Assembly (NCBI GenBank): GCA_965237675.1
Contig: OZ250150.1
Span: 5,440,001-5,504,000 of the forward strand
DNA length: 64,000 nucleotides
Direction of reading: 5' to 3'
From: Candidatus Latescibacterota bacterium
Lineage (GTDB): Bacteria; Latescibacterota; UBA2968; GCA-2709665
Shown here: piece after piece, positions 34,147-63,602 of the stretch
How the letters are laid out: each line of letters starts with the position of its first letter
Numbering within the stretch: position 1 is the first letter of the stretch
Position numbers and translations under genes: made by a program
The notes under the pieces: model-generated
What the model was told of the DNA's origin: nothing
Database searches by the model: none
What the model saw: the letters and a program-made list of their open reading frames with translations, nothing else

Positions 34147-34518
34147 TTATCCGTAAAGTCTGTTAATCTGATACTGTTGAACGGCAAGGGAAGCGATACC
34201 AAGACCGAAGATCGCCAGCAGAACACAGATAACCGGTAGATCCGAATTGGATTCCAGATCATTGCCAGCCTGAACTTCATTGATACCGACTGCCATCTTA
34301 TACTCATAATAAATGCCGAAGATGCCGCAGGTGATAATGGATAGAAATAACCAGAGCCAGAAGGAATACTCATTTCTCCCAAGCCAGGCATTGAGCGTCA
34401 CCATCTGCTTATATTGCCAATAAAGCCCATAGATACCGAAGGTTACAAGAGACAGCAGGATTCCCGCCACTAAACTCCGCCTGGCCTGAAACTCTGGATA
34501 GGGATATCCATTAGGCAT
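34147..34518 (-). CDS. DUF4234-like membrane protein
   Basis: Twice-repeated LS.(V/I)T.GI(Y/F)G.Y and terminal Q..IN. Confidence 0.8.
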   Translation of the reverse strand: MPNGYPYPEFQARRSLVAGILLSLVTFGIYGLYWQYKQMVTLNAWLGRNEYSFWLWLFLSIITCGIFGIYYEYKMAVGINEVQAGNDLESNSDLPVICVLLAIFGLGIASLAVQQYQINRLYG

Positions 34519-34652
34519 GTAGACCTCCGTTTTGTTTTGACGGTACGAACCTGACCTGCAAGGAAATATCGACTTTAAACCCCACTGTTTTCACTGCAAG
34601 ATGCCGTCACGACGAGGCGGGACCTGTCCCGGTCGCCACGGCCTACTGTCAC

Positions 34653-34760
34653 TAACAGCCCGTTGAAAAAGTCCATCCGGGCTGCGGCCGGCTCTTGTGG
34701 CCGAATCATTGCGCTGCGCTCCCTCCCCGAATCCCCCGATTCGACTCGGTCGCGCGCCGT
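34653..34760. mobile_element. Truncated MITE-like element (left half of the 39570-39735 element)
   Basis: CAGCCCGTTGAAAAAGTCCATCCGGGCTGCG.. closely matches 39573 onward and stops 3 nt before a CRISPR-like repeat. Confidence 0.75.
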
Positions 34761-34763
34761 GAG

Positions 34764-34799
34764 GTTTCAATCCACGTCTGATGGTTGATTCCTAACGGT
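34764..34799 (-). repeat. Solitary family-2 CRISPR-like repeat (degenerate)
   Basis: gtttcaatccacgt-ctgatggttgattcctaacggt aligns end to end with the 53544 copy. Confidence 0.7.
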
Positions 34800-34983
34800 C
34801 ACGTCGTTGACGAGACTGAGGACGCCCCCCCGACGGCGCGGCGCGCCGACCGCGGTTCATGCCGACCCCGCCGAGCAGCTGATCGACGAGTCCGCGCAAG
34901 CGCCACATCCAGTCGCCGTAGTACCAGCCATTGGCGACGCCAATTCGCCCTATGGGGGCAAACGCGGTGTCGGGGGCGCCCAC
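34800..34983 (-). pseudogene. Internal fragment of an SDR/DUF2867-type gene
   Basis: AFAPIGRIG.ANGWYYGDWMWRLRGLVDQLLGGVGMNRGRR; GC-rich; ends next to the repeat. Confidence 0.65.
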
Positions 34984-35621
34984 GAGGATTGCGCCTACTA
35001 ACCCAACGGCGGCGCGGGCAGGGCTTAGACCTCAAGATGTAAACGTTGGCTTCTGAAAACCGCTATTTGGTGAGTCGACACGAACTCCCGTACCGATATG
35101 AATATACGAAAGGGGGGCGCGAGATTCAAACCGTCACGCCCCTTCATTCGGAAGTCAGGGAGAAGCGATCAGGACATCATCAGGGTCGTTATGTACATGG
35201 GCTTACCACACCGCCGGCTTTGCCCCAATCCGTCTCGATTAACAATCCAAAAACCCAAGGCATGCCGCACGGAAAACTTCACTGATTCTTGGGGATATTT
35301 ATCTCATTTAGTTTGACATATTCCGCCGAATGTCATATAATCGCGGAAATTGCGCATGCCGCACCCTGGCAACTGACGCAGCAAACGATCAGGCCTGTCG
35401 AAATAGGGGTTGTCCGGGAACTCGCTGAAAATGTCCGGGTTGATCTTGCGCTAATGGAACAGACGGATCTCAAGCGTAGTTTTGAATCCGAATACATCCG
35501 GAAGTACGGCGGACACCTCGTTACGGACCGCAAGCGTATGTTGGATAGCCCTTTCCGGCGTCCCGGTCCATTGTGGACTGTGGCTGGCTGTGATGTGAAC
35601 TAAACATATTGGAGGGATATA

Positions 35622-36287
35622 ATGCGTTTTTTTGTGGGTTTCTTGTCTATACTTGTTGCCTTTATTCAAACCGTACCGGCACAGACGGCAGATGTTGCAA
35701 GTCATGTTGCGGCGCTTAAAGGCAAGACGTTCTGGATCAAAATCGCTTTTGTAGAGGTAAATGACGGGATTCGAGGCATTGATGCTGCGAACGTCCTGGA
35801 GAATGGAGAGGTCTCATACCGCGCTACAATAGGCGGTTTTCGTCAGTCTCAATCTCAGTCGGCTGAGGATTTCGCCGAAGAGGTCCGGAATATCATTACG
35901 AGAGATGCGCTCTCGGGGTGGAGCGTGCGGGTTATTCAAAGGGGCGCGAAAGTCGTAATCCGAAAAGCCGAGGCAAGGGAAAAAGACGTATATATTGAAC
36001 TCGACAAACTGTCAGGTGCTCGCCATGCCGTTCGCCTTAAAGTCAATAGAGATAAGTACACAATCCCCGAAGTTGAACGCCTTTTCAATGTCGCCTTTGC
36101 AGCAAGCGAAGCGGAATTAGCAGGTCCCGAGGAAACCGTTTTGCTTAAATTGAACATGTCCATTGAAGAAGTGATCGCCCGGAAAGGCAAACCCAGGACG
36201 CGCGTTGAACTCGGCGACAAGACCATTCTCGCTTATGAAGACTTGAAGTTGATATTCAAGGACGGGAGGTTGGCGGATGCCGAGTAA
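35622..36287 (+). CDS. Hypothetical exported protein
   Basis: GGAGG RBS, signal peptide, C-terminal MSIEEVIARKGKP motif. Confidence 0.75.
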   Translation: MRFFVGFLSILVAFIQTVPAQTADVASHVAALKGKTFWIKIAFVEVNDGIRGIDAANVLENGEVSYRATIGGFRQSQSQSAEDFAEEVRNIITRDALSGWSVRVIQRGAKVVIRKAEAREKDVYIELDKLSGARHAVRLKVNRDKYTIPEVERLFNVAFAASEAELAGPEETVLLKLNMSIEEVIARKGKPRTRVELGDKTILAYEDLKLIFKDGRLADAE

Positions 36288-36595
36288 TTGAACACCTGTG
36301 ATCCCTGCACATTTTCCAGTACATACGTCATTACTCCACCCTCTTCGCGGAACCATTGCATCAAAACGCCCACATCGGTTCCCACACAAAGGAATTCCAC
36401 TCCCATATCCAAATATCGCTTCGCGCCTTTGGCTTCCCCGAATTCCGCTCGAGTCGGTATTTCAATCGCATATTTTCCCGCTACTCGGACGTTATCCCTG
36501 CCATAGCCGGCCTTGATAGGCCGGTAATTAAAGAATAATCCGACGGGTCGATTTGTATCAATCGGTTCCCCCCTTCATCCGCCAGTCCATCTTTT

Positions 36596-36625
36596 TGTAA
36601 GGGCGACCGGCCGGTCGCCCCTACA
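36596..36625. repeat. REP-like palindrome
   Basis: TGTAAGGGCGACCGGCCGGTCGCCCCTACA; related copies at 37435-37458, 37366-37390 and ~32607-32633. Confidence 0.75.
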
Positions 36626-36655
36626 GATCCCGTGCGTAGGTAGGAAGTCAGCGTT

Positions 36656-37230
36656 TCATCGGAAGATCCGCGCCACGATTTCGCTGCCGGGTGCGCGCTG
36701 TATCTCCTCCGGTGTCCCGCACTGTACGATACGGCCGCCTTGCAGCACCGCGATCCGGTCTGCGACCGCCAGGGCATCTGAGACGTCTCGCGTGGCATAA
36801 ATCACCGTGCGGTGCCGTCGGGGGAATGAATGGTCAGGGAGGGGTTGTCCGCGTGCTCGGATAAATCGCCGGGAGGTTCGCGGTGGGATCCGTCCAGCGC
36901 CATGTTCGGAAACGCATAGCGCCGGATCCACACCCCCCGCCATCTTTCCGACCGCCACTCGGGCGGGAAAGCGTCGACACCCCCGGAGAAACGCCAACCG
37001 CGGATTATGCCGGGACTGGTCTCGTCTTCGTACCCATCCGAACCGATATGCACGCCGCCCTGCCGGTCCGAGCGTTTGCCGACGTATCGCAGCAGCGTCG
37101 TCTTGCCGGCGCCAGCCTCCCCGACGATCGCGACAATCTCCCCCGACCGTACAAAAAGCGTCAGCCCGTCGAGGACGGGCGTCTTTGTGCCTTTGTATCG
37201 AAAGGTGATATTGTCGAGGAAAACGAACAT
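36656..37230 (-). pseudogene. Degraded ABC transporter ATP-binding gene
   Basis: Walker A-like GEAGAGKTTLL in one frame and DALAVADRIAVLQGGRIVQ.GTPEEI in another; signature region missing. Confidence 0.75.
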
Positions 37231-37693
37231 TTCGGATAATCCATCAGGGTGGATATAACTTTCAGTTGTGGCAATTACTGCGAAAAAGAATGCAGCGATC
37301 AGTCGACAGCGGTCAGCCAAAAAACGCAAAGGCGATCTATTCACGTCAGCGCATCTAGAGAATCTGTAGGGGCAACCCTTGTGGTTGGCCAGGTCGCGGG
37401 TGACTGCATGCAGCGGGCAGCGACATCGGGTCTTGTAGGGGCGACCGGCCGGTCGCCCTCGTTACGATCGAGCAGCGGTAAACAGTCAGCGTAACGCAAT
37501 CAGTCAAACAATCGAGGTCCGCGGGCCGCAACGCGAATCACTTCGATTTCTTCCAGGCGGAACAAGCGTTCACAGCAGGCCAAAATATGTAACACCATGA
37601 CGTTGAGGGAACGCATGGCGAGAGAATCAGTTGACAACGCGCATCAAATCTCGTAGTAATATTGCAGGTAATCAACCGAAACGGAGGCTTCCG

Positions 37694-37948
37694 GTGAAAA
37701 CCGCTCTCGTTCAAATCGGGAATTCGCGCGGCATCCGTATCCCCACGGAGTTCCTGGAACAGTGCCAACTTCGAGACGTCGTGGAACTCGAACTTCGCGG
37801 GGGTCACTTAATCATCCGTCCGACTACCCAAACCCGAAGCGGTTGGGAAGACGCCTTTCGCAACATGCGCATACACCAGGACGATACGCTTCCTGATGAA
37901 ACATATCGGTCTGCTACAGAATGGGACACTACGCAGTGGGAATGGTAG
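37694..37948 (+). CDS. mazE: AbrB/MazE antitoxin
   Basis: IGNSRGIRIP..RSGWEDAF..WEW; overlaps the mazF start. Confidence 0.85.
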   Translation: MKTALVQIGNSRGIRIPTEFLEQCQLRDVVELELRGGHLIIRPTTQTRSGWEDAFRNMRIHQDDTLPDETYRSATEWDTTQWEW

Positions 37949-38244
37949 TTGCGCGTTTCGACGTCTGCCAGGTGGGGCTCGATCTTGCACAAGGGCGGGA
38001 GATTCAGAAAACGCGCCCTTGTGTTGTAATATCTCCCGATGAGATGAACAGGCATATCGGAACCGTCATCGTTGCCCCGCTGACTACAAAAGGTCGCGCC
38101 TATCCCACCCGTATCCCTCTCCGTTTTCAGAGAAAAAGCGGACAGATCGTGCTCGATCAGGTACGCACGGTTGACAAAACCCGCCTGGTACGTCGTCTGG
38201 AAAAATCAGCGACAAGGCTGCCCTCGAAGTCCTGGCCGTGCTGA
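37942..38244 (+). CDS. mazF: PemK/MazF toxin with an apparently frameshifted C-terminus
   Basis: GREIQKTRPCVVISPDEMN..DQVRTVDK.RL; expected tail ISDKAALEVLAVLREMFA is in the -1 frame from 38205. Confidence 0.85.
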   Translation: MVVARFDVCQVGLDLAQGREIQKTRPCVVISPDEMNRHIGTVIVAPLTTKGRAYPTRIPLRFQRKSGQIVLDQVRTVDKTRLVRRLEKSATRLPSKSWPC

Positions 38245-38406
38245 GGGAGATGTTCGCGCGAGTAGGTTTTGCGCGTTCGAGGACCTTAACCAGCATATTT
38301 GCGACGCGGCGCGGCACGGGTATCCCCAGGGCGTTCCTGGAACCGTGCCAACTTCTTACAGTAAGCGGAAGTTGAACAGTCACTCAAACCGGAAGGGAGA
38401 ACCTGA

Positions 38407-38628
38407 ATGAACGCAGCAAGCGAATTGTCCGAACGGCAGGCCCGGCTTGAAGGCATCATTGAGCAAATGGACCGCCGCTTTGAGTCCATTGATCGCCGCC
38501 TGGATTCCATCGACCGCCGCCTTACGGGCATCGAGTCCAGCATGCGTCAGGGCTTTTTCTGGATCGTCGGCATTCAGATTACCACCCTCTTGACGCTTGG
38601 CGCGTTGATTCTCATCAAGCTCGGATAG
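38407..38628 (+). CDS. Small coiled-coil protein with a C-terminal TM helix
   Basis: RBS, SIDRRL heptad repeats, hydrophobic tail. Confidence 0.7.
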   Translation: MNAASELSERQARLEGIIEQMDRRFESIDRRLDSIDRRLTGIESSMRQGFFWIVGIQITTLLTLGALILIKLG

Positions 38629-38697
38629 CCACCCGCCTCCCGAAAGAACACCCAAGTGAACGCCATCGCCCACACAAACGCCGACATCACCAACCTG

Positions 38698-38771
38698 TCT
38701 AGCAGACAGCCAGACCACCGAAGTGAGGGGAGATGGGGACGGCTTTGCCGCGGTCCTTCACGACGCGGTAT
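38698..38771 (-). CRISPR. Displaced partial type I-C repeat plus 37-bp spacer-sized segment
   Basis: 38715-38734 ccaccgaagtgaggggagat is identical to 20 nt of the array repeat, in the same orientation; 38735-38771 separates it from a family-2 repeat. Confidence 0.8.
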
Positions 38772-38808
38772 GAGTCGGTCCTTGTTCTGATGGAAGATTC
38801 TCGACGTG
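38772..38808 (-). repeat. Solitary family-2 CRISPR-like repeat
   Basis: gagtcggtccttgttctgatggaagattctcgacgtg. Confidence 0.85.
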
Positions 38809-38836
38809 TCCGCCTTCGATTGTTCATTTAAGCCTC

Positions 38837-39160
38837 TCATGGGATGCCTGCCGCTGCTCCAAACGCCTCTTGTGCTTCCCGTATCTTGACGTCCAACAAC
38901 GCCTCTTGTATCTCCTCTTGTATGTCCTGCTCCGCTTGCGTAAAGACATCGGCGGACCGCCGCCGGTAAACTTCCGTTCGGAATTCTTGGTTGTCCTCCC
39001 TGATCTTGTCTTGAAAAGCTTCCCGTACCGCCACTTCCATATCCGTCGCTATCGACGGGTTTTCTAGCACGGCATTCTTTACCGCCTGCTTCAGTATTTC
39101 TCGCGGTTCCCCTTTTTGTGCCCCAGCGTCCCACAACACCCGTACCGCCTGCTTCAGCAT
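38837..39160 (-). CDS. Hypothetical helical protein (cassette cargo)
   Basis: 107 aa with internal repeat MLKQAV/ILKQAV; fills the interval between two repeats. Confidence 0.55.
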   Translation of the reverse strand: MLKQAVRVLWDAGAQKGEPREILKQAVKNAVLENPSIATDMEVAVREAFQDKIREDNQEFRTEVYRRRSADVFTQAEQDIQEEIQEALLDVKIREAQEAFGAAAGIP

Positions 39161-39198
39161 TTCTCACCTTGGATTGCTCATTTAAGCCCTCCCAGATG

Positions 39199-39235
39199 GT
39201 TTAAATCCTTGTTCTGATAGAAGATCTTCACCGGG
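39199..39235 (-). repeat. Solitary family-2 CRISPR-like repeat
   Basis: gtttaaatccttgttctgatagaagatcttcaccggg. Confidence 0.88.
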
Positions 39236-39236
39236 A

Positions 39237-39424
39237 TTAGCGGCGGCACCTGGCGGTGCGTTTTTCAGCCGCTCGTTCGGCGTCGGCTTTGGCCCACAGG
39301 GCCAACTGGGACAAGGTAGGAACCGGCAGGCCGCCTTGTAGTCGGCAGGAGCAAACGGCGTCCCGTCGGGATGCCAGCCGCGGCCGAATATCTTCGTGTA
39401 CTTTTCTTTAGGTAGGGTAGGCAT
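39237..39424 (-). pseudogene. Small WHxDGTPFxPADY protein, frameshifted copy
   Basis: Homologous to 47018-47227; 4-nt deletion after KAAC; the restored frame reads LPVPTLSQLALWAKADAERAAEKRTARCRR with TAA 1 nt before the repeat. Confidence 0.7.
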
Positions 39425-39427
39425 AGA

Positions 39428-39464
39428 GATTCAATCCTTGTACTGATGGAAAATTCTCGCCGGG
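39428..39464 (-). repeat. Solitary family-2 CRISPR-like repeat
   Basis: gattcaatccttgtactgatggaaaattctcgccggg; ATG follows 3 nt downstream on the minus strand. Confidence 0.88.
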
Positions 39465-39470
39465 TCTATC

Positions 39471-39560
39471 TCAATCGAACCAATCCCGGGGCGTAAAGTA
39501 TTTGATTCCAATAACCACCACAAGAATGACAGCAAGCAAGAGTATAAATCCCAAAATCAT
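39471..39560 (-). CDS. Small single-TM peptide (cassette cargo)
   Basis: MILGFILLLAVILVVVIGIKYFTPRDWFD; stop 6 nt before the repeat. Confidence 0.45.
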   Translation of the reverse strand: MILGFILLLAVILVVVIGIKYFTPRDWFD

Positions 39561-39569
39561 AGCGGCCCG

Positions 39570-39735
39570 TATCAGCCCGTTGATAAAGTCCATCCGGGCT
39601 GCGTCCGGTCCTTGTGGCCGAAATACTGCGTTGCACTCCCTCTCCGAATCCCCGGATTCGACGCGGTCGCGCGCCTTGTCTTCGGCCACAATGACTCGGC
39701 CTCGCCTGCAGAGCGACTTTTTCAACGGACTGCTA
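39570..39735. mobile_element. MITE-like element with terminal inverted repeats
   Basis: CAGCCCGTTGATAAAGTC ... GACTTTTTCAACGGACTG ends, internal palindromy, partial second copy at 34653. Confidence 0.8.
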
Positions 39736-39749
39736 TATACTTGTTTTCC

Positions 39750-39785
39750 GTTTCAGTCCTTGTTCTGGGGAAGATTCCGAGCGGG
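39750..39785 (-). repeat. Solitary family-2 CRISPR-like repeat
   Basis: gtttcagtccttgttctggggaagattccgagcggg. Confidence 0.85.
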
Positions 39786-39810
39786 ACTGTGGGTTGGGCC
39801 ACGGCCGCTT

Positions 39811-40362
39811 TTATTCATCTCCGCGGATCCTGGCCAGCGCCTCGCTCGCAGCATCTGCCATGAAATCCAGAGAGTCCTTAAGATTCTCGCGTATCCATTC
39901 GAGATACCTGACCGCCCGTTGCTCTCGAAACTCACCGAGTTGCCGGATGATCGTCTCCCCCAGACCGGTGCCCAAAGGGTATCGGTCTCTGGCCATGTGC
40001 TCGAAAACGCTCTCGAGCAGATTCAGCAGGTGTTGGCGAATTTCCTCCGAATCCGGTGAGGGTCTCCAGACGTAACGCGGGTTTTCCCAGGACACCCACT
40101 CGTCGGGTCGACCGGCTTGCACGCGCCGTTCCTGTTCCCAGCCGCCATGGCGCATCACCGGCCCGATCGGGATGCGATCGCGATCGGGCCGGCGATGTGG
40201 ATGGTTCGCACAATAGGTGTAGAAGGGATTCTCTATCGCGATGTCCCTGATCTCGCAATAGGGCGGTATGCTCTTGTCAGCGTGCCGCGACCAGTCGCGC
40301 TCGCCCTGGTTCGTTCGATTGAACCAACAGGTTCCGCAACAGTCGGATCCTCCGTTGGGCAT
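39811..40362 (-). CDS. Hypothetical Cys/His-rich protein
   Basis: GGAGG RBS; MPNGGSDCCGTCWFN..YCEIR..YCANH; HEAT-like tail; ends 25 nt before the repeat. Confidence 0.75.
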   Translation of the reverse strand: MPNGGSDCCGTCWFNRTNQGERDWSRHADKSIPPYCEIRDIAIENPFYTYCANHPHRRPDRDRIPIGPVMRHGGWEQERRVQAGRPDEWVSWENPRYVWRPSPDSEEIRQHLLNLLESVFEHMARDRYPLGTGLGETIIRQLGEFREQRAVRYLEWIRENLKDSLDFMADAASEALARIRGDE

Positions 40363-40699
40363 CGCTCAGCCCTCCTCCCGGTTGAAACTCCGCAACATCT
40401 CCCACAACCCGTCATGTAGTAGCGCTCGCACCGTCACATCGTTCGGTCCAATTGGAATCCTCCGCCAGGCATAACATAAAGTCCATTTGTCGCAAGTATT
40501 GCGACAACATTAAAAAAGCTATCGGCTGTTAGCGTGCAGCCGTCAGCCAGAAACAGTGAGAAAAGGAACCGGTGTGAAGGTGGGGCGGACATTCCTGTCT
40601 GCCCTTATCATTGTCCTTCTGTCGCGATACAGACAGAAGCAAGGCTTGCGCCGTCCTCTTTCCAGTGGGGGAGACGGCGGCGAGTCGCGGCGTGCCCAG

Positions 40700-41260
40700 A
40701 CACAGGATTCTATCGGTCTGTGACGGGATCTCCGACCACGGTGATTACTACCGGGTCGGTACGTGGGAAGTGCTGGACTTCGCAGGCCGAGCACTGGCGT
40801 ACCTGACCGCCGCGCCTGGCAACCGTGGGCTGTCCGCATGCGGAGCAGAAGCCGTTGCGCACATGCCAATGAACGAGCGACCGCGCCTGGGCCAGGATGC
40901 CGGTTTCCCGACCCGCAAGCACGGTCCCGGCGTTGCGGCAATCCTCGAAACGCCAGTCCTGAGCGTCTGCTACCCGGCTGGCTGCCTCGGGGAAGGGAGA
41001 CAGGTCTACGGCGAAGTGCGCGACGCGTCCAATAGGCCGAGGAATATCGGCGCCGCGTCAGGCGTCAGGGTCCGGATACGCTGCGTGTTCAGCCAACCAA
41101 GCCGCGGAGGAAGGCGGTCGTGGATAAACTCCTCCAGGTTTCGGAAGGCCAGAAACCTGCTACCGGCGGCGCGTCCGGCGCGCTCAATCCAGGTTTCATC
41201 CCGACGTTCCCGTTCGCCACGGTCGAGGCGATTGCCGGAGAATGGATATGGAACTCTCAT
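40700..41260 (-). pseudogene. nudC: NADH pyrophosphatase remnant
   Basis: FSGNRLDR..RRDETW in one frame, ARSLVHWH..FCSACG..C..C..HFPRTDPVVI in another; Nudix box absent. Confidence 0.8.
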
Positions 41261-42262
41261 CGTTTGGGGTTACCGAAGGAGGAAAGCGGAAGGGAGGCGA
41301 GGGTCTATCCAGCCCATAGACGGCGCGAGTTCACGTCCAACTCCCGCGGCGCGACCGCTCGAGAACAGCGATGATGCGGCCTATTGTGCCGACGGCTTTT
41401 TCAGGCAACCCAGTGTGCACATCTTTCGGAAATTATGCAAATCCGCACGCAACGCCAACGTGGAACCCGCGGTGGAAGCATGGGCGCGCTATTTCCTGGA
41501 AACTGGACACTTTCCATGAACAAAGGGCAGAAAGCGACGAGGGGAACCCAATGACAAGCGGCCATTGCAGGCAACCGGATTCCATGGAGAGATTCGCCCT
41601 TTAGAGGGTCCGCCAACGGACACGTTGATCGAAATAGCCATTGCAGGATAATTTACAGACATTGTTTTGAAATGGTAGGATCAGGAAACGACCCGCGCAG
41701 ACTATAGATGGGACCAGACCCCCGTCTTGTCACTTGAAATCGCCGAAATGTCTAAGGAAGAAGATCCGTATCGCGCCATAGAGATCTGAGAAATGATGGC
41801 CGAGTCTGCGAGCAGCCGCGTTGAAGATATCGGATACCGGGAAGCCGTCGATTAACTCCGCAAAGTCCGAGACACCTTTAGACATCTCAACGTCGAGGAC
41901 GATTTGAGCGCATCGAGAGTCGGAAACAAAATAAAATCGCGTTGTGTGGAAGTACCCGATGTTCTGGCAGGCAAGCGTTTTATCGATAGTGCATCGGTTA
42001 TGCATGAACGATAGTCGGAATTTTCATTTTGTCCGGGTACCTATCCAATCCGACATGCACGTCACCCTGTCGATCCGAACGTCTGTCAACGAAACGCGGC
42101 AGCAAATGGTTGTGACCGCCAAACCCATTGCCGATGCTGACTTTACTCCAGGTCGGCAATGCCGCGTGCCGGGGCGTAGCAGGATTGCGCCGAGCGCCGT
42201 GTATCTGACTAAGATGGGGGCGAAGTTCCTGTGAGCCCCGGCCATGGCGTACCACTACCTGC

Positions 42263-47014: not shown

Positions 47015-47051
47015 GTTTCAATCCTTGTTCTGGTGGAAGACGTTCGACGAT
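47015..47051 (-). repeat. Solitary family-2 CRISPR-like repeat
   Basis: gtttcaatccttgttctggtggaagacgttcgacgat. Confidence 0.9.
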
Positions 47052-47338: not shown

Positions 47339-47375
47339 GTTTCGATCCTTGTTCTGGTGGATCTACATTTGCGGG
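47339..47375 (-). repeat. Solitary family-2 CRISPR-like repeat
   Basis: gtttcgatccttgttctggtggatctacatttgcggg. Confidence 0.85.
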
Positions 47376-47899: not shown

Positions 47900-47936
47900 G
47901 AGTAAATCGTTGTTCTGATGGAAGTTCTCATTGGGC
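47900..47936 (-). repeat. Solitary family-2 CRISPR-like repeat (degenerate)
   Basis: gagtaaatcgttgttctgatggaagttctcattgggc. Confidence 0.75.
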
Positions 47937-49929: not shown

Positions 49930-50727
49930 CAGTGAAAACCTCCTTCGAATCGGGTTTACAGCGGCGACAACGGAAAGTGCTAATACACGCACCACCGGTG
50001 GGTACGGGTGCGCCGTCTGGATTCTATGCCATGGACTTTGCGGCTAGGGCCAAAAGCCGGTACCGTGAGCGTTAATCTCCTTCTGGGCCTTGGCGGAGAC
50101 TCTGCGTCGCTTGTACGCGTTTCCTGGTAGCCTCGTAGACCTTCATTCGAAGAAAGCAAGGGGTGCCGAGATTGCTATGGTGCCCGATGTGCCACTGCCT
50201 GCGCCTATGCAGGAACCACATGAATGGATTGACTGTGACCGCCGAGCATTTCTGGGGGTATTCGCACACTCAGGGTTCGCGGTCCAAGTGTATGTTGCCG
50301 CGCAACAGGTGTGGGCTCAACATGCCGATGGACGCGTACGCAGTCGCTTGCACGGTACTGGGTACAGCGGTTGGTGGTACTTGTGGTCCGTCAATTCAGG
50401 GTCAAGATTGATGTTCCAGCGTGCCAGTCCAAAGATGCGCCCGAATAGGCTTTTGAGCCACCGGGTACAGAACGTGGTGCGATGCGAGAGTTGGTGCACC
50501 GCATCTATTGCACAAGTACCTCTCGGTAGATCCGCGACCGTTTCCGGTCCAACTTGACCGAGGTATAGGAGACAAATTCATTCGACTCGACAATATGACA
50601 ACGTGCAGAGCAAACGTCGCCTGATCGTCGGGTTCGTTCACGTTTCGATTCCGGTTCCTGTGGAAAATGCACTGCGGATTGTCGTGCGTACACAACGCAC
50701 CTCGGCCATTCGGTCTCTTGGCGCTGC

Positions 50728-51646: not shown

Positions 51647-51683
51647 AAAGTCCTCGTTGTTCTGATGGAAAATTCCCTGTCTA
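51647..51683 (-). repeat. Solitary family-2 CRISPR-like repeat (degenerate 3' end)
   Basis: aaagtcctcgttgttctgatggaaaattccctgtcta; ATG of the Nmad3-like gene follows 4 nt downstream. Confidence 0.72.
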
Positions 51684-53543: not shown

Positions 53544-53580
53544 GTTTCAATCCTTGTTCTGATGGAAGATTCCCGACGGT
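53544..53580 (-). repeat. Solitary family-2 CRISPR-like repeat (best-conserved copy)
   Basis: gtttcaatccttgttctgatggaagattcccgacggt. Confidence 0.9.
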
Positions 53581-55002: not shown

Positions 55003-57672
55003 GTTTCAATCCGCTCCCCCCACCGAAGTGAGGGGAGATGTCATCTCGGGCGCGTGCGCGAAGTCCTTCCACGAGTTTCAATCCGCTCCCCCCACCGAAG
55101 TGAGGGGAGATATTCAGGATGTTTCCGCGTCTATCGTTCCGTCTCCGGTTTCAATCCGCTCCCCCCACCGAAGTGAGGGGAGATATGGACGAAGAAGTCA
55201 TACACTACGACTCCCGGATAGGTTTCAATCCGCTCCCCCCACCGAAGTGAGGGGAGATTTTTATGATGGACTGGATAGACGCCGAAAGAAACAGTTTCAA
55301 TCCGCTCCCCCCACCGAAGTGAGGGGAGATCTGTATCCGTGCGCCTCATCGCCCTCGACCTCTCACAAGTTTCAATCCGCTCCCCCCACCGAAGTGAGGG
55401 GAGATCAGCGCGGGTATGCCTTCCTCGCGCACGACATCCAAAGTTTCAATCCGCTCCCCCCACCGAAGTGAGGGGAGATGAATCTGACGGGTATCGTACC
55501 CGCCGTCCCACTCGAGTTTCAATCCGCTCCCCCCACCGAAGTGAGGGGAGATCCTTCGCGTATGACGAGGGCCTTGATCCTTTCATGAGACAGTTTCAAT
55601 CCGCTCCCCCCACCGAAGTGAGGGGAGATCGCTTGCTCGGTGGCTGAGAGTTGCGATACTTACGTGTTTCAATCCGCTCCCCCCACCGAAGTGAGGGGAG
55701 ATCTCCCAGGCGGCACAATGGCGGTTAGTGGGAACCAGGTTTCAATCCGCTCCCCCCACCGAAGTGAGGGGAGATCGCCGGGCGGCGACCTGTGGGAAGC
55801 GTCGGGGATGGTCGTTTCAATCCGCTCCCCCCACCGAAGTGAGGGGAGATGCCGTGGGCGTTTTCATTCCGGGAAAGGCTGACATGTTTCAATCCGCTCC
55901 CCCCACCGAAGTGAGGGGAGATCAGGGGCCGCTTGCCGGGGTTACCATCAAGGATCCGCGTTTCAATCCGCTCCCCCCACCGAAGTGAGGGGAGATCTCT
56001 GTCGGGCATGGCGAAAAGAACCAACAAAAGCAAGTTTCAATCCGCTCCCCCCACCGAAGTGAGGGGAGATATCCTTATCTCGCGCCGGCACTGTTGGGTA
56101 CGACGAGTTTCAATCCGCTCCCCCCACCGAAGTGAGGGGAGATTTAAACCGGGGCCACAATACAGGAGGGTAAATAATGGTTTCAATCCGCTCCCCCCAC
56201 CGAAGTGAGGGGAGATGTCGGCCGGAATTCTTGCCGAACACGATAGCGCAGTTTCAATCCGCTCCCCCCACCGAAGTGAGGGGAGATTAATGCCTGATTT
56301 TACTGGCGAACAAAAGAAAAAGTTTCAATCCGCTCCCCCCACCGAAGTGAGGGGAGATGGGCGCACAGATCGCCTCTGAGCGTTCCTTTTGTGGTTTCAA
56401 TCCGCTCCCCCCACCGAAGTGAGGGGAGATTCCTGTCTTCATCCGTGAATACATATCCTTCAGGCATGTTTCAATCCGCTCCCCCCACCGAAGTGAGGGG
56501 AGATCTACGATGCGGTATCGGATGTCGGTGCCTGCAATGTTTCAATCCGCTCCCCCCACCGAAGTGAGGGGAGATAGACAGCGGGTGGGCATTGACGACT
56601 GACGCGATAGGTTTCAATCCGCTCCCCCCACCGAAGTGAGGGGAGATTTGTCTGCCGGACGCGGCGCAATGCCGTCGCCATAAGTTTCAATCCGCTCCCC
56701 CCACCGAAGTGAGGGGAGATCCCGAAATGCAAGGGTGGTGGGACAAGTGCACTCAGGACGTTTCAATCCGCTCCCCCCACCGAAGTGAGGGGAGATGCGC
56801 GATGACGCCAAGACAAAAGTCATTCACAATGTTTCAATCCGCTCCCCCCACCGAAGTGAGGGGAGATTCGTAACCGTGCACGAACTGCTCAAAAGCGTCG
56901 ATGGTTTCAATCCGCTCCCCCCACCGAAGTGAGGGGAGATCCACGCCCCGCGCGGGTTCGCGCAACTCGTAGGAATGTTTCAATCCGCTCCCCCCACCGA
57001 AGTGAGGGGAGATTGCCTGTCTCCTCTTGAATCAGTGACGCGCTCAGGTTTCAATCCGCTCCCCCCACCGAAGTGAGGGGAGATTCATTTTCGTGCCTAC
57101 CTGCACAGCGAAAGACACGGTGTTTCAATCCGCTCCCCCCACCGAAGTGAGGGGAGATTCCCCGACCCCTCCCCTCCCACGGCCGTTCCTCCACGTTTCA
57201 ATCCGCTCCCCCCACCGAAGTGAGGGGAGATCAGGTTGCTCGACAAGGCCGTCCCAGGGGCTACGTGTTTCAATCCGCTCCCCCCACCGAAGTGAGGGGA
57301 GATGTGTCGCCTGTGGCCCTGGGGGTTTTGACCCGTACAGGTTTCAATCCGCTCCCCCCACCGAAGTGAGGGGAGATCCGTGGTGTCCTGGGCCTTGCCC
57401 TGGGTCTATACTGGTTTCAATCCGCTCCCCCCACCGAAGTGAGGGGAGATGTGCCGTCGCGGGCGTACGTCACCTCGGAACCAAAGGTTTCAATCCGCTC
57501 CCCCCACCGAAGTGAGGGGAGATCCAGGGGCGTCCGTGGGAGAGGCGGGTGGTGGGTCCGGGTTTCAATCCGCTCCCCCCACCGAAGTGAGGGGAGATGT
57601 ACGTGGTCGCGGCGGCTTACGCCGCGCTGGGTACGGTTTCAATCCGCTCCCCCCACCGAAGTGAGGGGAGAT
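55003..57672 (-). CRISPR. Type I-C CRISPR array, 37 repeats and 36 spacers
   Basis: 37-nt repeat ATCTCCCCTCACTTCGGTGGGGGGAGCGGATTGAAAC (minus strand); spacers of about 34-40 bp; counted by eye. Confidence 0.98.
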
Positions 57673-57852: not shown

Positions 57853-58140
57853 CTATAAAACCAGCGGACCCGATAGGTCCACGGGTTTACTGATACCGTG
57901 ATGCTCTGTCTCCTTTCCGGTGTCTTCGTCCAGGTGATAGATTCGAAGGGAGTCTTGCTCATGATCGATTTCCTTTAACAAACGATTTCGGAGCACGGCC
58001 CATTCCGTTTTTCCGACCTTACATTCAAACAGCGACTTTTGTACTCGTACGCCGAAATCCTCACAGGCTCTTGCGACGCGCCGCAGTCGCTTTTGTCCAG
58101 CCCGGTCAATCGTCGAGACGTCGTACGCGATCAGTTTCAA
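57853..58140 (-). CDS. cas2: CRISPR-associated Cas2
   Basis: IAYDVST..RLRRVARAC..GVRVQKSLFEC..DSLRIY; probable TTG start at 58140 within a repeat-like sequence. Confidence 0.93.
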   Translation of the reverse strand: MKLIAYDVSTIDRAGQKRLRRVARACEDFGVRVQKSLFECKVGKTEWAVLRNRLLKEIDHEQDSLRIYHLDEDTGKETEHHGISKPVDLSGPLVL

Positions 58141-58176
58141 TCCGCTCTCCTGCAATAGAACAGGTGAAATCCTACT

Positions 58177-59238
58177 TCATTTGGGTATGTACGGGATATA
58201 GTCGGGAATATCGCCACGGAGCTTTCGCGCCAGCAACCTGGCTTGAATGCTGAACACCTGCCCTAAACGGATATTTTCCTTGAACAGCGCGTGCTTTACC
58301 TCGGTTTGCTTCCGGCGTTGCCAGGCCTGGATAACCTCTTTCCTGCCCCGGTCGGTAAACTCCACTGCGCCGCCTTCGCGCTCGAGGAAGTGTCCAGGTT
58401 CAATCTGGCGACGATTGATCAGGGTCAATGCCAGCCGCTCAGCCAAACAGGGTCGGAACTCTTCCATCAGATCCAGCGCACAAGCCGGCCTACCAGCCCT
58501 TGTGGCATGGAGCCAGCCGACGTACGGGTCCAGCCCAGCGGTCGTCAACGCGGCCAAACAGTCGTGCCGCACCAGTGCGTAGATGAAGGAAAGCAGGCAG
58601 TTTACCCGGTCACGGGGCGGACGCCGCGAGCGCGTAATAAATCTGAAGTCTTCCCGCTGTTGTTTAAGCATGTACTGGAAGGCCGAGAAATATTTCCTGG
58701 CGCCCAGACCTTCCATACCCCTGATCGGATCGAGTGCCTCCCGAAGCCCGCAATTCGTTGCAACGGGTGGAGCATTGCCGAGTTGATCGATCAGCCGGGC
58801 TAATTCATCTGCGGCACCCACCAACTCCCTGCGGTCCGAATCCGTCTCGGCTTCGCGGCCGGACCGCAATAGATTGGAACGCGAATTCTGCAGCTTTCCG
58901 GCGACGAACTGCCGGGCAATGCGAGCAGCAACCTCCGGGCTGTCCGCCGCCGCGTATTGAGCCCGGCGGAGCAGATACCGGGTGTCTCCGCTTCCCAGAA
59001 CCTGCGCCAGCAGATGTCCGTTCTCGGTATGGTAATGGACGGCAACCTGATGCTGCCAGCACAGGGACATTGCAGGTGGCGTAACCACGACCCGACCGAA
59101 CGCGCAGATACTTTCCAGGTGATGAATCGGCACGGTCAATCGTGTTTGTTTTTCGATTTCGACCCGGAGCGTCAAATGATCCCTGTGGACAACAGTGCCC
59201 GGAGTCGTCAGATACAGGGTGTTCTGGATGATAGCCAT
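58177..59238 (-). CDS. cas1: CRISPR-associated Cas1 (type I-C)
   Basis: NTLYLTT, RGMEG.GA..YF, RSRRPPRD.VN.LLSF.Y, GLDPY.G.LH, ALDLMEEFR. Confidence 0.97.
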   Translation of the reverse strand: MAIIQNTLYLTTPGTVVHRDHLTLRVEIEKQTRLTVPIHHLESICAFGRVVVTPPAMSLCWQHQVAVHYHTENGHLLAQVLGSGDTRYLLRRAQYAAADSPEVAARIARQFVAGKLQNSRSNLLRSGREAETDSDRRELVGAADELARLIDQLGNAPPVATNCGLREALDPIRGMEGLGARKYFSAFQYMLKQQREDFRFITRSRRPPRDRVNCLLSFIYALVRHDCLAALTTAGLDPYVGWLHATRAGRPACALDLMEEFRPCLAERLALTLINRRQIEPGHFLEREGGAVEFTDRGRKEVIQAWQRRKQTEVKHALFKENIRLGQVFSIQARLLARKLRGDIPDYIPYIPK

Positions 59239-59281
59239 AACAGGTCCGTAAGCCAGGTTTGGCCTGTGGAACCAGGCAAAT

Positions 59282-59983
59282 TTAGTCTGAGGTGTCGAAC
59301 ACCTCCCGGCCGGCTTGAAGAAGGATGGGCGGAGCGCTGGTTATTTCGGGAAGGCAGTAATGAAAAAGCGAGCACTCCGAACATTGTGGCTTATGGACGG
59401 CTTGGGGGACCACTTCCTCTTCGATAAGCCGATGCACGGCTTCGATGGCGTGTTCTGTGAGTCGGCGCAGATCGCCGTCAAACTCAACTTCTCGCCGGCG
59501 CCTGCTCGTGGCGTGGTAGATAGCCCCTCGGGGAATCTCCAATTCGAACATTTCTTCGAGGCACAACGCTTGTGCGCAAAGCTGGGCGTCATCGTTGTCG
59601 AACTTGCGGCGTTTGCCCTTCTTATATTCAACTGGATAGACGCTTTCGACATTATCCGGCAAATATCGGGTTTTTTTTCGCTTAGAAGAACGTTTGAGTT
59701 TCACCTCAACAATATCGCATTTTCCAGAGAGCCCCAGCCTTTGGGACCATACCGGCAATGCCCGAAGCACTTCTGTATGTGCCGCCTTCTCGTACCCTGG
59801 TACATCGGCCTGCTCGTGAAATTGACTGCCGATTAGCGTGTGCTCGTTTTCGGTGAAAGTACCCTCGACATGGATCAAGCCCGCCCGCCGAGGGCAATAG
59901 AGGTACTGGTTGATAGCGGAGAGCGGAATGATCCGCTCTCCGCTATCGTACGGGTGGATCGGCTGGAAAACGGATTCATTCAT
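59282..59983 (-). CDS. cas4: CRISPR-associated Cas4
   Basis: YCPR, G..DIVE, PVEYKKG, QLCAQALCLEEM, C..CSL..C. Confidence 0.96.
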   Translation of the reverse strand: MNESVFQPIHPYDSGERIIPLSAINQYLYCPRRAGLIHVEGTFTENEHTLIGSQFHEQADVPGYEKAAHTEVLRALPVWSQRLGLSGKCDIVEVKLKRSSKRKKTRYLPDNVESVYPVEYKKGKRRKFDNDDAQLCAQALCLEEMFELEIPRGAIYHATSRRRREVEFDGDLRRLTEHAIEAVHRLIEEEVVPQAVHKPQCSECSLFHYCLPEITSAPPILLQAGREVFDTSD

Positions 59984-60929
59984 GACGCCTATTTAAGCAA
60001 ATGCCGGCGGGCAGATCGACACTGTCCCATCCGCAGCCAACCTCATAATCGGCGAAGGATTGCGGGAATTCCACGCTGTCCTTCAGTTTTACCTCTATTC
60101 CCTCAAAAAGCTTGTGGGCATGGGCACAGCCGAGGCGGGCTTCGCGTTTTTTTTGTTCGGCATTATTTTCATGTTGGGTGCCAACGTGCTCAAAGTCGTA
60201 AATCCCTCGCACCACCATTTCACCGCGAGCAGCGGAGCGGTCATGCTCGAACATCTGGTTGAGCGCATCGAAGAGGACATCGAGGTCGGCGTTAGTGAAC
60301 CCGGTGCGTTCGGCAAAAGCAGGCGAGACGTAAACCTTGGCGGCGAAGAGGGCATAGGGTACGATGTGCTTATTGCCCATGGTGCGTTCCTTGTCTGCGT
60401 CCTCCTCTTTTGTGACGGCACCGCGAGTAATGGAGATCTCCAGTGGCGTGATAGGATGGTACGACTGGCCAAAGGTGAACTGCACCGGACCGCGCACCTG
60501 ACCCCAAGCGGAGCCTTTCATGATGCTTTCCCCTACGCCGAGTACACCGCCGAACGCACGCACATCAAAGAACTCACGGCACAGCCATTTCATGGCAGCT
60601 TCTTGCTTCTCGTTCTTGGAAGCACCCGAGTCCAAACTCTCGGCACTTTTCTCAACGCCATTGTCGATCTCGTTATTGATTATGGCACCCTGCCTTATCA
60701 ACAGATTATAGCCGTTGGCATCATCTTCAGCCCGTTCGGGCGAGAACATTTCAACGAAGTTGCGCACCTTACGCTTGAGGCACACGTCGGAGACGAGACC
60801 CCGATTGGTGTTGTGATCTTGACGCGGCATGTTACCAGCATCGGGATCGCCATTGGGATTTCCGTTGGTGACCTCGAAGAGCAGCAAAACGTCGTGCCGA
60901 TTGGTGAGAATATCGTTGTTTCGATTCAT
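59976..60929 (-). CDS. cas7: Cas7c (Csd2)
   Basis: NGNPNGDPDAGNMPR, DVCLKRKVRN, FFDVRAFG, GPVQ, MFEHDRSAARG. Confidence 0.96.
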   Translation of the reverse strand: MNRNNDILTNRHDVLLLFEVTNGNPNGDPDAGNMPRQDHNTNRGLVSDVCLKRKVRNFVEMFSPERAEDDANGYNLLIRQGAIINNEIDNGVEKSAESLDSGASKNEKQEAAMKWLCREFFDVRAFGGVLGVGESIMKGSAWGQVRGPVQFTFGQSYHPITPLEISITRGAVTKEEDADKERTMGNKHIVPYALFAAKVYVSPAFAERTGFTNADLDVLFDALNQMFEHDRSAARGEMVVRGIYDFEHVGTQHENNAEQKKREARLGCAHAHKLFEGIEVKLKDSVEFPQSFADYEVGCGWDSVDLPAGICLNRRHE

Positions 60930-60954
60930 TGATGAATTCCTTTCTGTGAAAGAT

Positions 60955-62802
60955 TTATTGGTTGCTTTCCTTTTTTTCTTGTGCTGCCTCGCGGGCGACG
61001 CGGTCGGCGGCTTTTTGCTGGTAAAAACCGAGGGCGAAACGCCCCTGCGCGTGCAAATCCAACGTACGGGGGAATGGGTAGATTTTGGTTGACACTTCTT
61101 GAATAGCCTCGTCCAAGAAGCGGTCATGTCCTTTGTACTTATCGGACTTGCGGATATTGTTGAGATGGTGGCGGTTGAGCTTGAGGAGGACCGGAAACAC
61201 CGAGGCTGGCGAGGCCATGGCAGTACCAAAATAACGCTCGGCGACTCCGGCTCCTTCGAGCTGATAATCATGTGCCTTGGCTTGGGCCTCGGTGAGCACA
61301 GCGAGCAACCGTCCGCATTGATAGGCGGCATCTTCCGCCTTTGCGTCCTGTTGTTCAGTAATTTCCATGGTGTTTCCCTTTCGGTTTCGATTGAGAACGA
61401 GCTTTGCCAAGGCTAACCGGGAATGGTTCAACAATGCCGTGCTTCCATCGCGTGCCATATCAACGCGCAGGCGGTTCAACAGGGGATGCAAAAGAGCAAG
61501 TGAGGGCGCGGTCCCTTCCAGCGCGGCGCGAAATAACTGAGCGGTCACTTCCGTCTGCAAATCTTTTGCGTCGCGTACTGTAGTGCAAGCCAGTCGGAAC
61601 AGGGCTAATGGCGGCATCTTTTCTTTGCCAGTGGGCAGGCGCACCGGCTCCAGATCGAGATCGCGGAACCAGCGCCGCAGATTTTCCGTGGCGGTTTCCA
61701 GCGTCGTTTGCATCCAGTGGCGCACAACGATGCGGCCACTATTGCCCGCGAGAGTGACGGCATGGAACTGCTCCTGCCGCATTGCATCGCGTTCCTGTCC
61801 GACCCACGGGGACTTCAAAAAATGCGCCACTGCCATGGGATCGGCTTGGTTGAGTAAAACACCCCAATCGCTGGTGGCGTCCGTTTCATTCCGAGTCCAA
61901 AAACAGCATGATGCCTGCCCTAAGCGGATGGAATGATCTTTGCGGCCAAGCATCGCGTTGAGCGCGGTGCAATAGGCGGTGGCCGCCCGGGTGGAGGTGG
62001 AAGCATTTAGACTTTGCTCAAAACCGTAGGAGGCGAAGGCATCCTTATCAAACGAGACAATCGACGCGCCGAAGGCTTGGGTGTTGGGCACGCCTTGGAC
62101 TTTGGGGTTGTGGGTCATCGCAATAGGCTGATCGCTCTCCCCGGTGACCAAACAGAGTCCGTGGGGCGCATCCGCCTCGTGGTCTTCATTTTCCTTCTCG
62201 AATTGATTCCGCCAAAAGGGCCGGATGTGAATTTCATCCTCCAGAAGCAATTGCTCCTCCACGCGGAATGAAAAGTTGTCCGGCCCTAGTTTAACCTCTC
62301 CGCCATCGGCTTTGGTGATCCACCAAGCAGGTTTCTCCTTGGGCTTGGCGTCAGAACTGATACCCCAGCGCATAAAGGACAGCATCTGTCCCGGTTCGGG
62401 CTTGAACGCCAACAGGGTCTTGAGCGTCAGACTGAGTGTGTGCTCCTGCGCCTTTTCAATCTGCGCCCAAAAGTCATTGTACTTACGCAAATTGTTCTCA
62501 TTACGGTCCTTCCGCTTCTTTTCGGACATAGGTTGTTCCGGGTTCGCGTCAAATCCGAACACGGCCGTAATGCCATCCGCCATGAACTCGGCCACCCCGC
62601 CAGCCACCTTGGGCCGAGTTGTCTTTGGACAATCGAACTCCTTGCCTCGGTTCCTTTCCCCCTCGGTTTCCACCGGCCCTTGGCCCACGAGATTGCCCAT
62701 CGTGTCCAAAGTAACGATCCATCGCACTGCCTTTGGTTTGAAAGCTAGGTTATTCAGCAGTTTTCGAGATTTCGCGAAATCGTTCAAATGTTGCAGCAGC
62801 AT
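60955..62802 (-). CDS. cas8c: Cas8c (Csd1)
   Basis: CLVTG, IVSFDKDAF.SYG..Q, NSGRIVVR.W, AYQCGRLLAVL, QGRFALGFYQQ. Confidence 0.95.
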   Translation of the reverse strand: MLLQHLNDFAKSRKLLNNLAFKPKAVRWIVTLDTMGNLVGQGPVETEGERNRGKEFDCPKTTRPKVAGGVAEFMADGITAVFGFDANPEQPMSEKKRKDRNENNLRKYNDFWAQIEKAQEHTLSLTLKTLLAFKPEPGQMLSFMRWGISSDAKPKEKPAWWITKADGGEVKLGPDNFSFRVEEQLLLEDEIHIRPFWRNQFEKENEDHEADAPHGLCLVTGESDQPIAMTHNPKVQGVPNTQAFGASIVSFDKDAFASYGFEQSLNASTSTRAATAYCTALNAMLGRKDHSIRLGQASCCFWTRNETDATSDWGVLLNQADPMAVAHFLKSPWVGQERDAMRQEQFHAVTLAGNSGRIVVRHWMQTTLETATENLRRWFRDLDLEPVRLPTGKEKMPPLALFRLACTTVRDAKDLQTEVTAQLFRAALEGTAPSLALLHPLLNRLRVDMARDGSTALLNHSRLALAKLVLNRNRKGNTMEITEQQDAKAEDAAYQCGRLLAVLTEAQAKAHDYQLEGAGVAERYFGTAMASPASVFPVLLKLNRHHLNNIRKSDKYKGHDRFLDEAIQEVSTKIYPFPRTLDLHAQGRFALGFYQQKAADRVAREAAQEKKESNQ

Positions 62803-62804
62803 TA

Positions 62805-63602
62805 TCAAATCCCTTTTGGTTCGAGAATTTCAACTTCGTCGGGATGACAAACCAAGGTGGAATCCTTCATCTTGGCGCGGAAGAAACAGGCTTCGGGTCG
62901 AGCCAATTCGCCGACAAAACGTGCGGTATTCTTCTTGGGTCCCAGTTCATCGGGGCGTTTCCAGCGAAAGCCCTGAGCACGTGCCGTGGGCGGAAAAACA
63001 TCATAGAGCATCAAGCCCAAGTCCTCCACGGGCTGTCGCCAACTGATGCCCAGCTCAGTAGCTCGCCCTTCCAGCGCGGCCTGGGGATCATCAACCCACT
63101 CGAAATCCGCCGCGAATTCACGCATACCCAAGGCGGGCCGGTGGAAGCACTTGCCCTGCTGAGCGCGGCGCTTGAACTCGACGAAATACTTCACCGGTGT
63201 GTCGTTCGGGCGATTCGCCAACGGTGTGGTACGCAGTTCGGCACTGATGATGTATTCCACCTCTTGGAGAGCCAACATATTGCGCTGAGTGCCGTCAGGT
63301 GCGCCGCCCCCAGCCTCAATGGGCGATACCTTCTCCGGCTGAGCCATCCATTGGCCGACATTGCGCAGGCTGATGACTGACTGCACTTCATTGCGCCGAA
63401 TCGAGGCCCAGCGTCCTCGCCGAACCACCCGGACGACAGCGACGCAATAACAAACTTGAGGTTCCCAAAACACGGCTTCCAAAATGCCACGTGCGGCAGA
63501 GGGCGTCATCACCGAATAGCTGACGCGCTCCACTTTCATTTCGGGGCGAGTGAAACAAGCCCAATCGCCCCATACTCTGAGATGTACATGATTGTTTTTC
63601 AT
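62805..63602 (-). CDS. cas5c: Cas5c (Cas5d)
   Basis: VWGDWACFTRPEMKVERVSY..TPSAARGILEA, GKCFHRP.LG.REF, DLGLMLYD. Confidence 0.96.
   Translation of the reverse strand: MKNNHVHLRVWGDWACFTRPEMKVERVSYSVMTPSAARGILEAVFWEPQVCYCVAVVRVVRRGRWASIRRNEVQSVISLRNVGQWMAQPEKVSPIEAGGGAPDGTQRNMLALQEVEYIISAELRTTPLANRPNDTPVKYFVEFKRRAQQGKCFHRPALGMREFAADFEWVDDPQAALEGRATELGISWRQPVEDLGLMLYDVFPPTARAQGFRWKRPDELGPKKNTARFVGELARPEACFFRAKMKDSTLVCHPDEVEILEPKGI

Follow-up and report, generated by a model that had tools for sequence, protein, structure and literature searches.

The unit at positions 38698-38808 of the window, by which we mean the whole stretch of 64,000 nt that was analysed, is probably a non-functional fossil: the final spacer of an old type I-C CRISPR array, with its truncated terminal repeat, joined to a CRISPR repeat of the I-B type. 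Two genes converge on this hybrid unit, which lies within the 208 nt that separate them, on the outer margin of the CRISPR island of this genome (G000), and the distance to the I-C array is 16.2 kb. Its parts, half an I-C repeat, then a spacer, then a repeat from another family (here called family 2), are listed together with the other features in Table 1.

The hybrid unit

The half repeat corresponds to the final 20 nt of the 37-nt array repeat in its + strand form, which in the sense of the transcript (- strand) are the 5' 20 nt, and it has the same orientation as the 37 repeats of the array. When the whole genome was scanned for this 20-mer (5.6 Mb, both strands, at most 2 mismatches) 38 copies were found, the 37 in the array and the one at 38715-38734. 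By our own arithmetic, some 1e-5 exact copies of a 20-mer would turn up by chance in 11.2 Mb, and the match here cannot be accidental. The direct reading and the scan both confirm the exact 20-nt match to the transcript-5' part of the I-C repeat that the preliminary description had pointed out. It had also called the 37 nt between the half repeat and the repeat at 38772 a normal spacer length, and this is correct, the spacers of the main array being 34–40 nt long (mode of I-C spacers 36) with 8 of the 36 measuring exactly 37 nt.

The missing part of the repeat was thought to have decayed in the way that trailer repeats do. This holds in so far as the transcript-5' half is kept and the 3' 17 nt are lost; the 17 nt to the left of the half repeat (38698-38714) match the rest of the I-C repeat at 4 of 17 positions, which is chance level. 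The loss is abrupt, however, and falls at repeat position 17/18, while the undisturbed trailer of the main array in the related genome G011 keeps 35 of its 37 positions, and this suggests a breakpoint rather than ordinary decay. In another relative, G008, the terminal repeat of a distal mini array is interrupted at nearly the same position, and the left flanks of the two interrupted repeats show a likeness that is not significant (local alignment, P = 0.10). The unit thus resembles a degenerate trailer repeat in its transcript-5' half, its normal-length spacer, its array orientation and its position at the outer edge, but differs from one in the abrupt loss and in its lack of continuity with an array of the same repeat, as the next repeat is of another subtype (family 2) and the array of its own family is 16.2 kb away.

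The family-2 repeat of the unit is not intact either. Four of its five differences from the copy at 53544 fall within the 10 nt that encode the handle and one in the other 25, a clustering with a P of about 0.004–0.017 (own hypergeometric arithmetic), and its 3' handle matches the 10 nt that are common to both repeat families at 6 of 10 positions. Changes at this same end are also seen in the terminal repeats of the G003 and G006 family-2 arrays. An assembly artefact as the source of the unit could be ruled out, because it is spanned in the G012 assembly and by contigs of two public runs (X4, 38390-39447, and X16, 38320-38881).

The 73-aa ORF that converges on the unit contains a 21-nt tandem repeat of 2.5 copies (38470-38522), and one unit of this repeat is absent from an RNA-library contig (X15).

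Table 1. Positions in the window of the hybrid unit, the CRISPR repeats, the type I-C locus and the small genes.
Feature	Position	Strand	Remark
Family-2 repeat, weak	34759		Left of the hybrid unit; found by nhmmer
Coiled-coil/membrane ORF, 73 aa	38407..38628	+	Converges on the hybrid unit
Half I-C repeat	38715..38734	-	Transcript-5' 20 nt, exact
Spacer of I-C-like length, 37 nt	38735..38771	-	Identical in the G012 copy; no other occurrence
Family-2 (type I-B-like) CRISPR repeat	38772..38806	-	5 differences from the 53544 copy
107-aa ORF, unknown family	38837..39160	-	Cassette between the first two family-2 repeats
Small 'W..DGTP' ORF family, frameshifted copy	39182..39424	-	Between two family-2 repeats
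Family-2 repeat, solitary	39199..39233	-	
Family-2 repeat, solitary	39428..39462	-	One end of the 321-bp deletion in the X4 contig
Family-2 repeat, partial	39750..39778	-	Other end of the 321-bp deletion
Family-2 repeat	47015..47049	-	Encodes tail and stop codon of the small ORF 47018-47227
Small ORF family, intact copy, 69 aa	47018..47227	-	Tail and stop from the 47015 repeat
Family-2 repeat, solitary	47339..47373	-	
Family-2 repeat, degenerate	47901..47927	-	
Family-2 repeat, divergent variant also in G003	50642..50676	-	Directly downstream of the Nmad3 gene
Family-2 repeat, partial	51657..51678	-	
Family-2 repeat 'F2a'	53544..53578	-	Orthologues in G012 and G008 preceded by I-C pieces
Main type I-C array	55003..57672	-	37 identical 37-nt repeats, 36 spacers
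Leader	57673-57852		Adjoins cas2
I-C genes cas2, cas1, cas4, cas7, cas8c (csd1), cas5d	57853..63602	-	Pfam

The resident type I-C system

The resident system is of subtype I-C. Cas5d, Csd1/Cas8c, Cas7, Cas4, Cas1 and Cas2 all exceed the Pfam cut-offs, the genes run on the - strand from cas5d (62805-63602) to cas2 (57853-58155), and a cas3-like match lies beyond the end of the window. The repeat is predicted to fold into a hairpin of 10 pairs (-19.1 kcal/mol, z = -3.7). The main array does end at 55003 with a perfect repeat and without a degenerate terminal copy, as the preliminary description had it, and there is no repeat-like sequence directly to the left of 55003. G012 has two copies of the unique sequence found there (to 54992), and in each case a family-2 repeat comes next, which implies that the present clean trailer would itself be the product of an exchange between the two families. 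At the other end of the array, the first codons of cas2 (58134-58150) match the last 17 nt of the I-C repeat, in transcript sense, at 16 of 17 positions; this may be a coincidence or a relic of a repeat on the leader side.

Identity of the family-2 repeat

Eleven copies of family 2 were found in G000 with nhmmer at E <= 0.65, all matching on the + strand and all within 34759-53590 of the window, on the trailer side of the I-C array. Seven further matches in the genome (E 0.7–7.3) are weak and partial. The repeats are not the edges of a mobile element, as they form regular arrays in relatives, with 65 repeats in the sister genome G010, 34 in G006, 63 in G024 and 76 in G012, and in G003 three blocks of 7, 4 and 26 repeats. 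The spacers in these arrays are 36–42 nt long (mode 39–40). The 65-repeat array of G010 adjoins genes for Cas6b (E 3.6e-32), Cas7 (DevR/Csa2), Cas5, Cas3, Cas1 and Cas4, whereas a Cas8b-like match there is weak, 19.7 bits as compared to a cut-off of 21. Family 2 is consequently a real CRISPR repeat, type I-B-like and associated with Cas6b in relatives. It shares its first 10 nt (+ strand), which encode the 3' handle, with the I-C repeat, and is otherwise unrelated to it; fold prediction gave no structure.

Two other identities were considered for family 2. A coding motif ('..FHQNKD' followed by a stop) was rejected as a general explanation, since the reading frames vary, some copies are intergenic and true arrays exist in relatives, and an integron attC was rejected by eye, the repeat being weakly folding and not palindromic. 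The exact 25-mer of family 2 had no matches in IMG/VR.

The genome of G000 contains no Cas6b, Cas8b, Cas7b or Cas5b. The profiles Cas6b_C, Cas_Cas6_C and CRISPR_Cas6 gave no match, and a tblastn search with the I-B proteins of G010 found solely the cas1 and cas3 of the I-C system. The MazEF pair, a 221-aa gene and a 945-aa gene with Ig repeats are common to G010 and to the window of G000, which shows that the I-B-like locus of the one and the I-C locus of the other occupy the same chromosomal site. It was also observed that the 76-repeat family-2 array of G012 (loci L009/L010, G012:C5:3031456-3037053) is well preserved beside an I-C array, and no match to Cas6b or another Cas6 was found in that genome, which is 95% complete.

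The unit in related genomes

We made comparisons with other genomes of the order, all of them MAGs or single representatives. The spacer of the hybrid unit was found in two of 53, G000 and its closest relative G012, which are MAGs labelled Latescibacterota and, going by the labels of the runs, live in association with sponges. In G012 the spacer is identical and the family-2 repeat has one difference, and the unit stands at the same locus, collinear with 30012-41282 of the window at 85–98% identity. Relatives could have carried the unit at a place unrelated to the array, and this is not seen in the only relative that has it. Within the unit there is 1 difference in 92 nt, and the surroundings are 98.2% identical over 785 columns; with such a background the conservation of the unit is uninformative either way.

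The distance between unit and I-C array is 15.5 kb in G012, and only 38772-41282 and 53543-54992 of the DNA between them are common to the two genomes. Elsewhere in the intervening DNA of G012 there are two I-C relics, one of them a degenerate repeat and the other a full repeat with 2 mismatches; 36 nt beyond the latter comes the orthologue of the 53544 repeat. Also present are the family-2 array of 76 repeats and a DUF4432 gene with family-2 repeats on either side, as well as a second, partial copy of the DUF4432 region. Relics of I-C among family-2 repeats also occur in four further genomes, G008, G001, G011 and G009. In G008 a distal mini I-C array lies 7.8 kb from the main I-C array. Its terminal repeat is interrupted by an insertion of about 17 nt; after this come a spacer, a perfect repeat, another spacer and a final repeat that is cut after about 16 nt, with the orthologue of the 53544 repeat about 46 nt further on. 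G001 has an I-C repeat, 37 nt and a family-2 repeat in succession, and the reverse polarity as well, and G011 has two junctions from family 2 to I-C; junctions of both polarities are present in G001 and G011. No I-C relic was found within the 36 kb examined in G010.

The spacers at the I-C-to-family-2 junctions are 36–37 nt long, which fits the I-C mode of 36 and not the family-2 mode of 39–40, and indicates that they were acquired by an I-C system and were once flanked by I-C repeats on both sides. Among 374 spacers from ten loci in nine genomes, that of the hybrid unit is the sole one common to two genomes. Between the main I-C arrays, with 36 spacers in G000 and 19 in G012, there is no overlap, and the split of the unit from the array therefore predates the divergence of the two genomes. 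The repeats exist in two variants. The one with an A is found in the half repeat, in the distal mini array of G008 and in the two trailer-most repeats of the main array in G012, and the one with a G in the other 18 repeats of G012 and in all 13 repeats of the G008 main array. The common A variant suggests that the distal I-C pieces match the oldest part of the arrays.

Origin of the hybrid unit

The preliminary description proposed that a piece of the array had been displaced. The general idea stands, since an I-C half repeat and its spacer are indeed stranded in the right orientation at the edge of the island, but the proposed cause, the insertion of one block (38772-55002) that would have separated the last full repeat of the present G000 array from the last spacer and pushed the trailer 16 kb away, is very unlikely. 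Removing 38772-55002 on paper does yield a half repeat, a 37-nt spacer and a perfect repeat; the main array has no degenerate terminal copy of its own, and the block holds an IS and defence-type cargo genes. However, in G012 the same unit is followed by DNA of other content and length, with two more I-C relics and the 76-repeat family-2 array, and in G008 the distal I-C fragment adjoins the orthologue of the 53544 repeat and not that of the 38772 repeat. Family-2 copies are found all through the block and also to the left of the unit (a weak one at 34759), which implies that the block is no single element with set boundaries, and the lack of common spacers between the main arrays of G000 and G012 speaks against it as well. 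A joint between 38771 and 55003 was not among the 15 of 34 joints listed from four runs; neither this nor the parts of the stretch that these runs leave uncovered is evidence of absence. Taken on the sequence comparisons, a single recent 16.2-kb insertion into the present array is contradicted.

The fossil origin of the unit would instead involve exchanges between the two repeat families. The type I-B-like repeat would have taken the place of a full I-C repeat originally next to the spacer, and a crossover within the common 10 nt would join an I-C spacer directly to an I-B-type repeat without any other scar. Repeated exchanges of this kind, together with gain and loss of genes between the repeats across the genus, could have turned one I-B/I-C locus into an island in which solitary repeats and cargo genes form a mosaic and where the half repeat would mark the outermost and oldest edge. 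Recombination from repeat to repeat between family-2 copies was directly seen: the X4 contig that spans the hybrid unit is without exactly the 321 bp between two family-2 repeats (39448-39768). In another X4 contig 116 nt of other sequence connect 45329 with 53543, which resembles the layout in G008. The crossover at 38772 itself we infer from the other junctions, since the common 10 nt of this copy are altered (6/10), and the order of events may be either way, with I-B-type DNA entering an I-C array or I-C pieces entering an I-B array.

The ancestor that this explanation postulates, the spacer joined to a full I-C repeat, had been suggested as something to look for in relatives and reads. It was found neither in the 53 genomes of the order nor among the 15 of 34 joints listed from the four runs, nor in the JGI metagenomes, which apparently do not contain this lineage and had no matches to the pattern of an I-C-to-family-2 junction either.

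Comparison with regulatory mini-arrays

The unit had also been suggested to act on its own as a crRNA-like regulator of the CreA/CreR/crlRNA type, which would load into the I-C Cascade and, by pairing partially with a promoter, repress it. We consider this very unlikely. Regulatory mini-arrays are widespread in type I loci (PMC10120712; 10.1101/2023.03.10.532045), and the unit is like them in that two repeat-like elements flank one spacer, apart from the main array, and in that it is kept in a close relative, although at 98% background identity this conservation is uninformative. An RNA-library contig (X16) covers the unit, which may reflect read-through transcription or DNA carry-over. The mini-arrays described (PMC10120712) lie inside cas loci, whereas the unit is outside the cas operon region, at a distance of 19 kb from cas2 and of over 24 kb from the cas5 start, and is without a PAM-adjacent partial target, a cognate 5' handle, an intact hairpin or a predicted promoter.

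The spacer of a regulatory mini-array would be expected to pair partially, over at least 10 nt that include the seed, with a cas or cargo promoter beside the cognate PAM. The best match of the spacer in the genome is 26/37, as compared to 25–26 for 10 shuffled spacers, which gives no target above chance. In the window one site combines a TTC PAM with a seed match of 9/12, where the null mean is 1.5. There is no exact match of at least 11 nt in positions 30001-75000 (the window and 11 kb beyond its end), and none of the three 10-nt matches there is at the seed with a TTC. The search for phage targets and for promoters with a TTC PAM, which the preliminary description had called for, thus gave nothing above chance: the 37-nt spacer had no match among the INPHARED phages or in IMG/VR with every sixth base left free, its only two matches to PLSDB plasmids are at chance level (20–28 nt, E = 0.4), and the 26-nt core was not found in the JGI metagenomes.

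Processing in an I-C system requires the hairpin and the handle. The upstream repeat of the unit is of another subtype, with 6 of 10 handle positions identical to those of I-C; of the 10 I-C hairpin pairs, 3–4 are left in the downstream half repeat, and the fold of the whole unit is no better than that of shuffled sequences (z = +1.0, as compared to -3.7 for the I-C repeat). No sigma-70-like promoter is predicted in 38300-39500, a prediction that does not cover the promoter type of this phylum, and the unit is placed between converging genes. Rfam at gathering thresholds gave only three tRNAs in the window. Nothing in G000 would be expected to process the hybrid unit into a guide.

Lone CRISPR repeats outside arrays and beside small genes are also known as the solitary repeat units and RNA anti-CRISPRs of mobile elements (PMC10651486). 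Compared with these, the repeats here are chromosomal, on the trailer side of the host's own array, conserved in the genus and many per locus, and the exact sequence is absent from IMG/VR.

Genes between the repeats

The family-2 repeats bracket the 107-aa ORF, genes for GmrSD, Nmad3, OmdA/DUF2752 and DUF4432, an IS and two copies of a small ORF family. The GmrSD-type restriction endonuclease and Nmad3 genes (48175-49995 and 50728-51924) represent defence-type cargo inside the CRISPR island.

The small ORFs are 57–69 aa long, with an invariant W, G, P and P and a near-invariant D, D, Y, V, T, A, W and A. Copies outside the window are found at the loci L018 (9782-9958, 10592-10768 and 10811-11014), L011 (10352-10528 and 10912-11085) and L015 (17644-17838). 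In 9 of 11 copies the ATG comes 3–5 nt after the upstream repeat, though the proteins are only 40–90% identical, and in the two exceptions it comes 10 and 111 nt behind it. The terminal tail of five out of 36 distinct members is encoded by the next repeat. The family has 35 clusters in a large protein collection, with no Pfam family, no name and no Atlas neighbour, and the AlphaFold model (pLDDT 80.9) matches no fold in the PDB at E <= 0.001. Viral relatives were also considered, and the match of two IMG/VR contigs to 30 residues inside a 156-aa phage ORF was judged to be a local resemblance. The arrangement of small ORF and repeat may have a function, or only reflect shared descent and homogenisation of the repeats.

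It is conceivable, if rather unlikely, that the trailer side of the array in this genus is a platform for gene cassettes with CRISPR repeats as working joints, where genes come and go and are rearranged between I-B-type and I-C repeats, and that the hybrid unit is the terminal joint and not mere debris. Solitary family-2 repeats stand at gene boundaries over 15 kb, and one cassette (39448-39768) is precisely absent in another strain, that of the X4 contig. Cassettes with DUF4432, Nmad3 and the small ORF recur in varied order beside family-2 or I-C repeats in G012, G008, G001, G010 and G011, and the fixed spacing of the small ORF starts fits the same picture. On the other hand, passive homologous recombination between 35-nt repeats, together with the decay of an old array, can yield all of these patterns. 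A single polymorphic cassette was seen, and G000 is without the Cas6b that would process transcripts of repeats and cassettes.

The island can also be compared with integrons. The recurring site of an integron is the palindromic attC. Like integron cassette arrays, the island has genes mostly in the same direction that are split by a short recurring site, with presence and absence of single cassettes exactly at these sites; the difference is that the recurring site here is a CRISPR repeat and that the exchange may be plain homologous recombination.

Other elements in and around the island

Several other elements were observed in this region. A MITE-like element of roughly 160 bp (39573-39732), absent at this site in G012, has a copy at 34653-34761; the two have an inverted 21-nt match, and the bin depth on metagenome contigs is up to 424. 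The IS at 45337-46978 has 21-nt inverted ends and a DDE_Tnp_1 transposase (45439-46785), and is placed exactly at the site of the distal mini I-C array in G008, adjoining the upstream region of the 945-aa gene. A segmental duplication (36735-37398 and 47415-47684, 85–87% identity) is a fragment that encodes a truncated ABC-type ATPase, and 33-nt inverted repeats lie around its first copy (36600-36632 and 37427-37459). The MazE/MazF (PemK) toxin-antitoxin pair (37631-38244) is located just outside the CRISPR island, and at the same site in G010 and G001.

Implications

The hybrid unit is best read as a scar, and it adds no new regulator. In the portions available of the literature on hybrid or chimeric CRISPR arrays and on ORFs between repeats, no description of this arrangement was found. 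Within one genus, a single chromosomal site carries the I-B-like or the I-C subtype depending on the genome, and the arrays of the two are mixed at the resolution of single repeats, plausibly via the 10 nt that both repeats have in common. This means that trailers, which are used for the dating of spacers, can be chimeric.

Should the cassette platform be real, CRISPR repeats would also be exchange points for genes of defence and of small proteins, and where Cas6b is present the array transcript could be cut at each repeat into almost leaderless mRNAs of a single gene. The fossil, for its part, shows that orphan repeats far from the array can hold the oldest memory of a locus, because its spacer alone is common to G000 and G012, whose active arrays have fully turned over.
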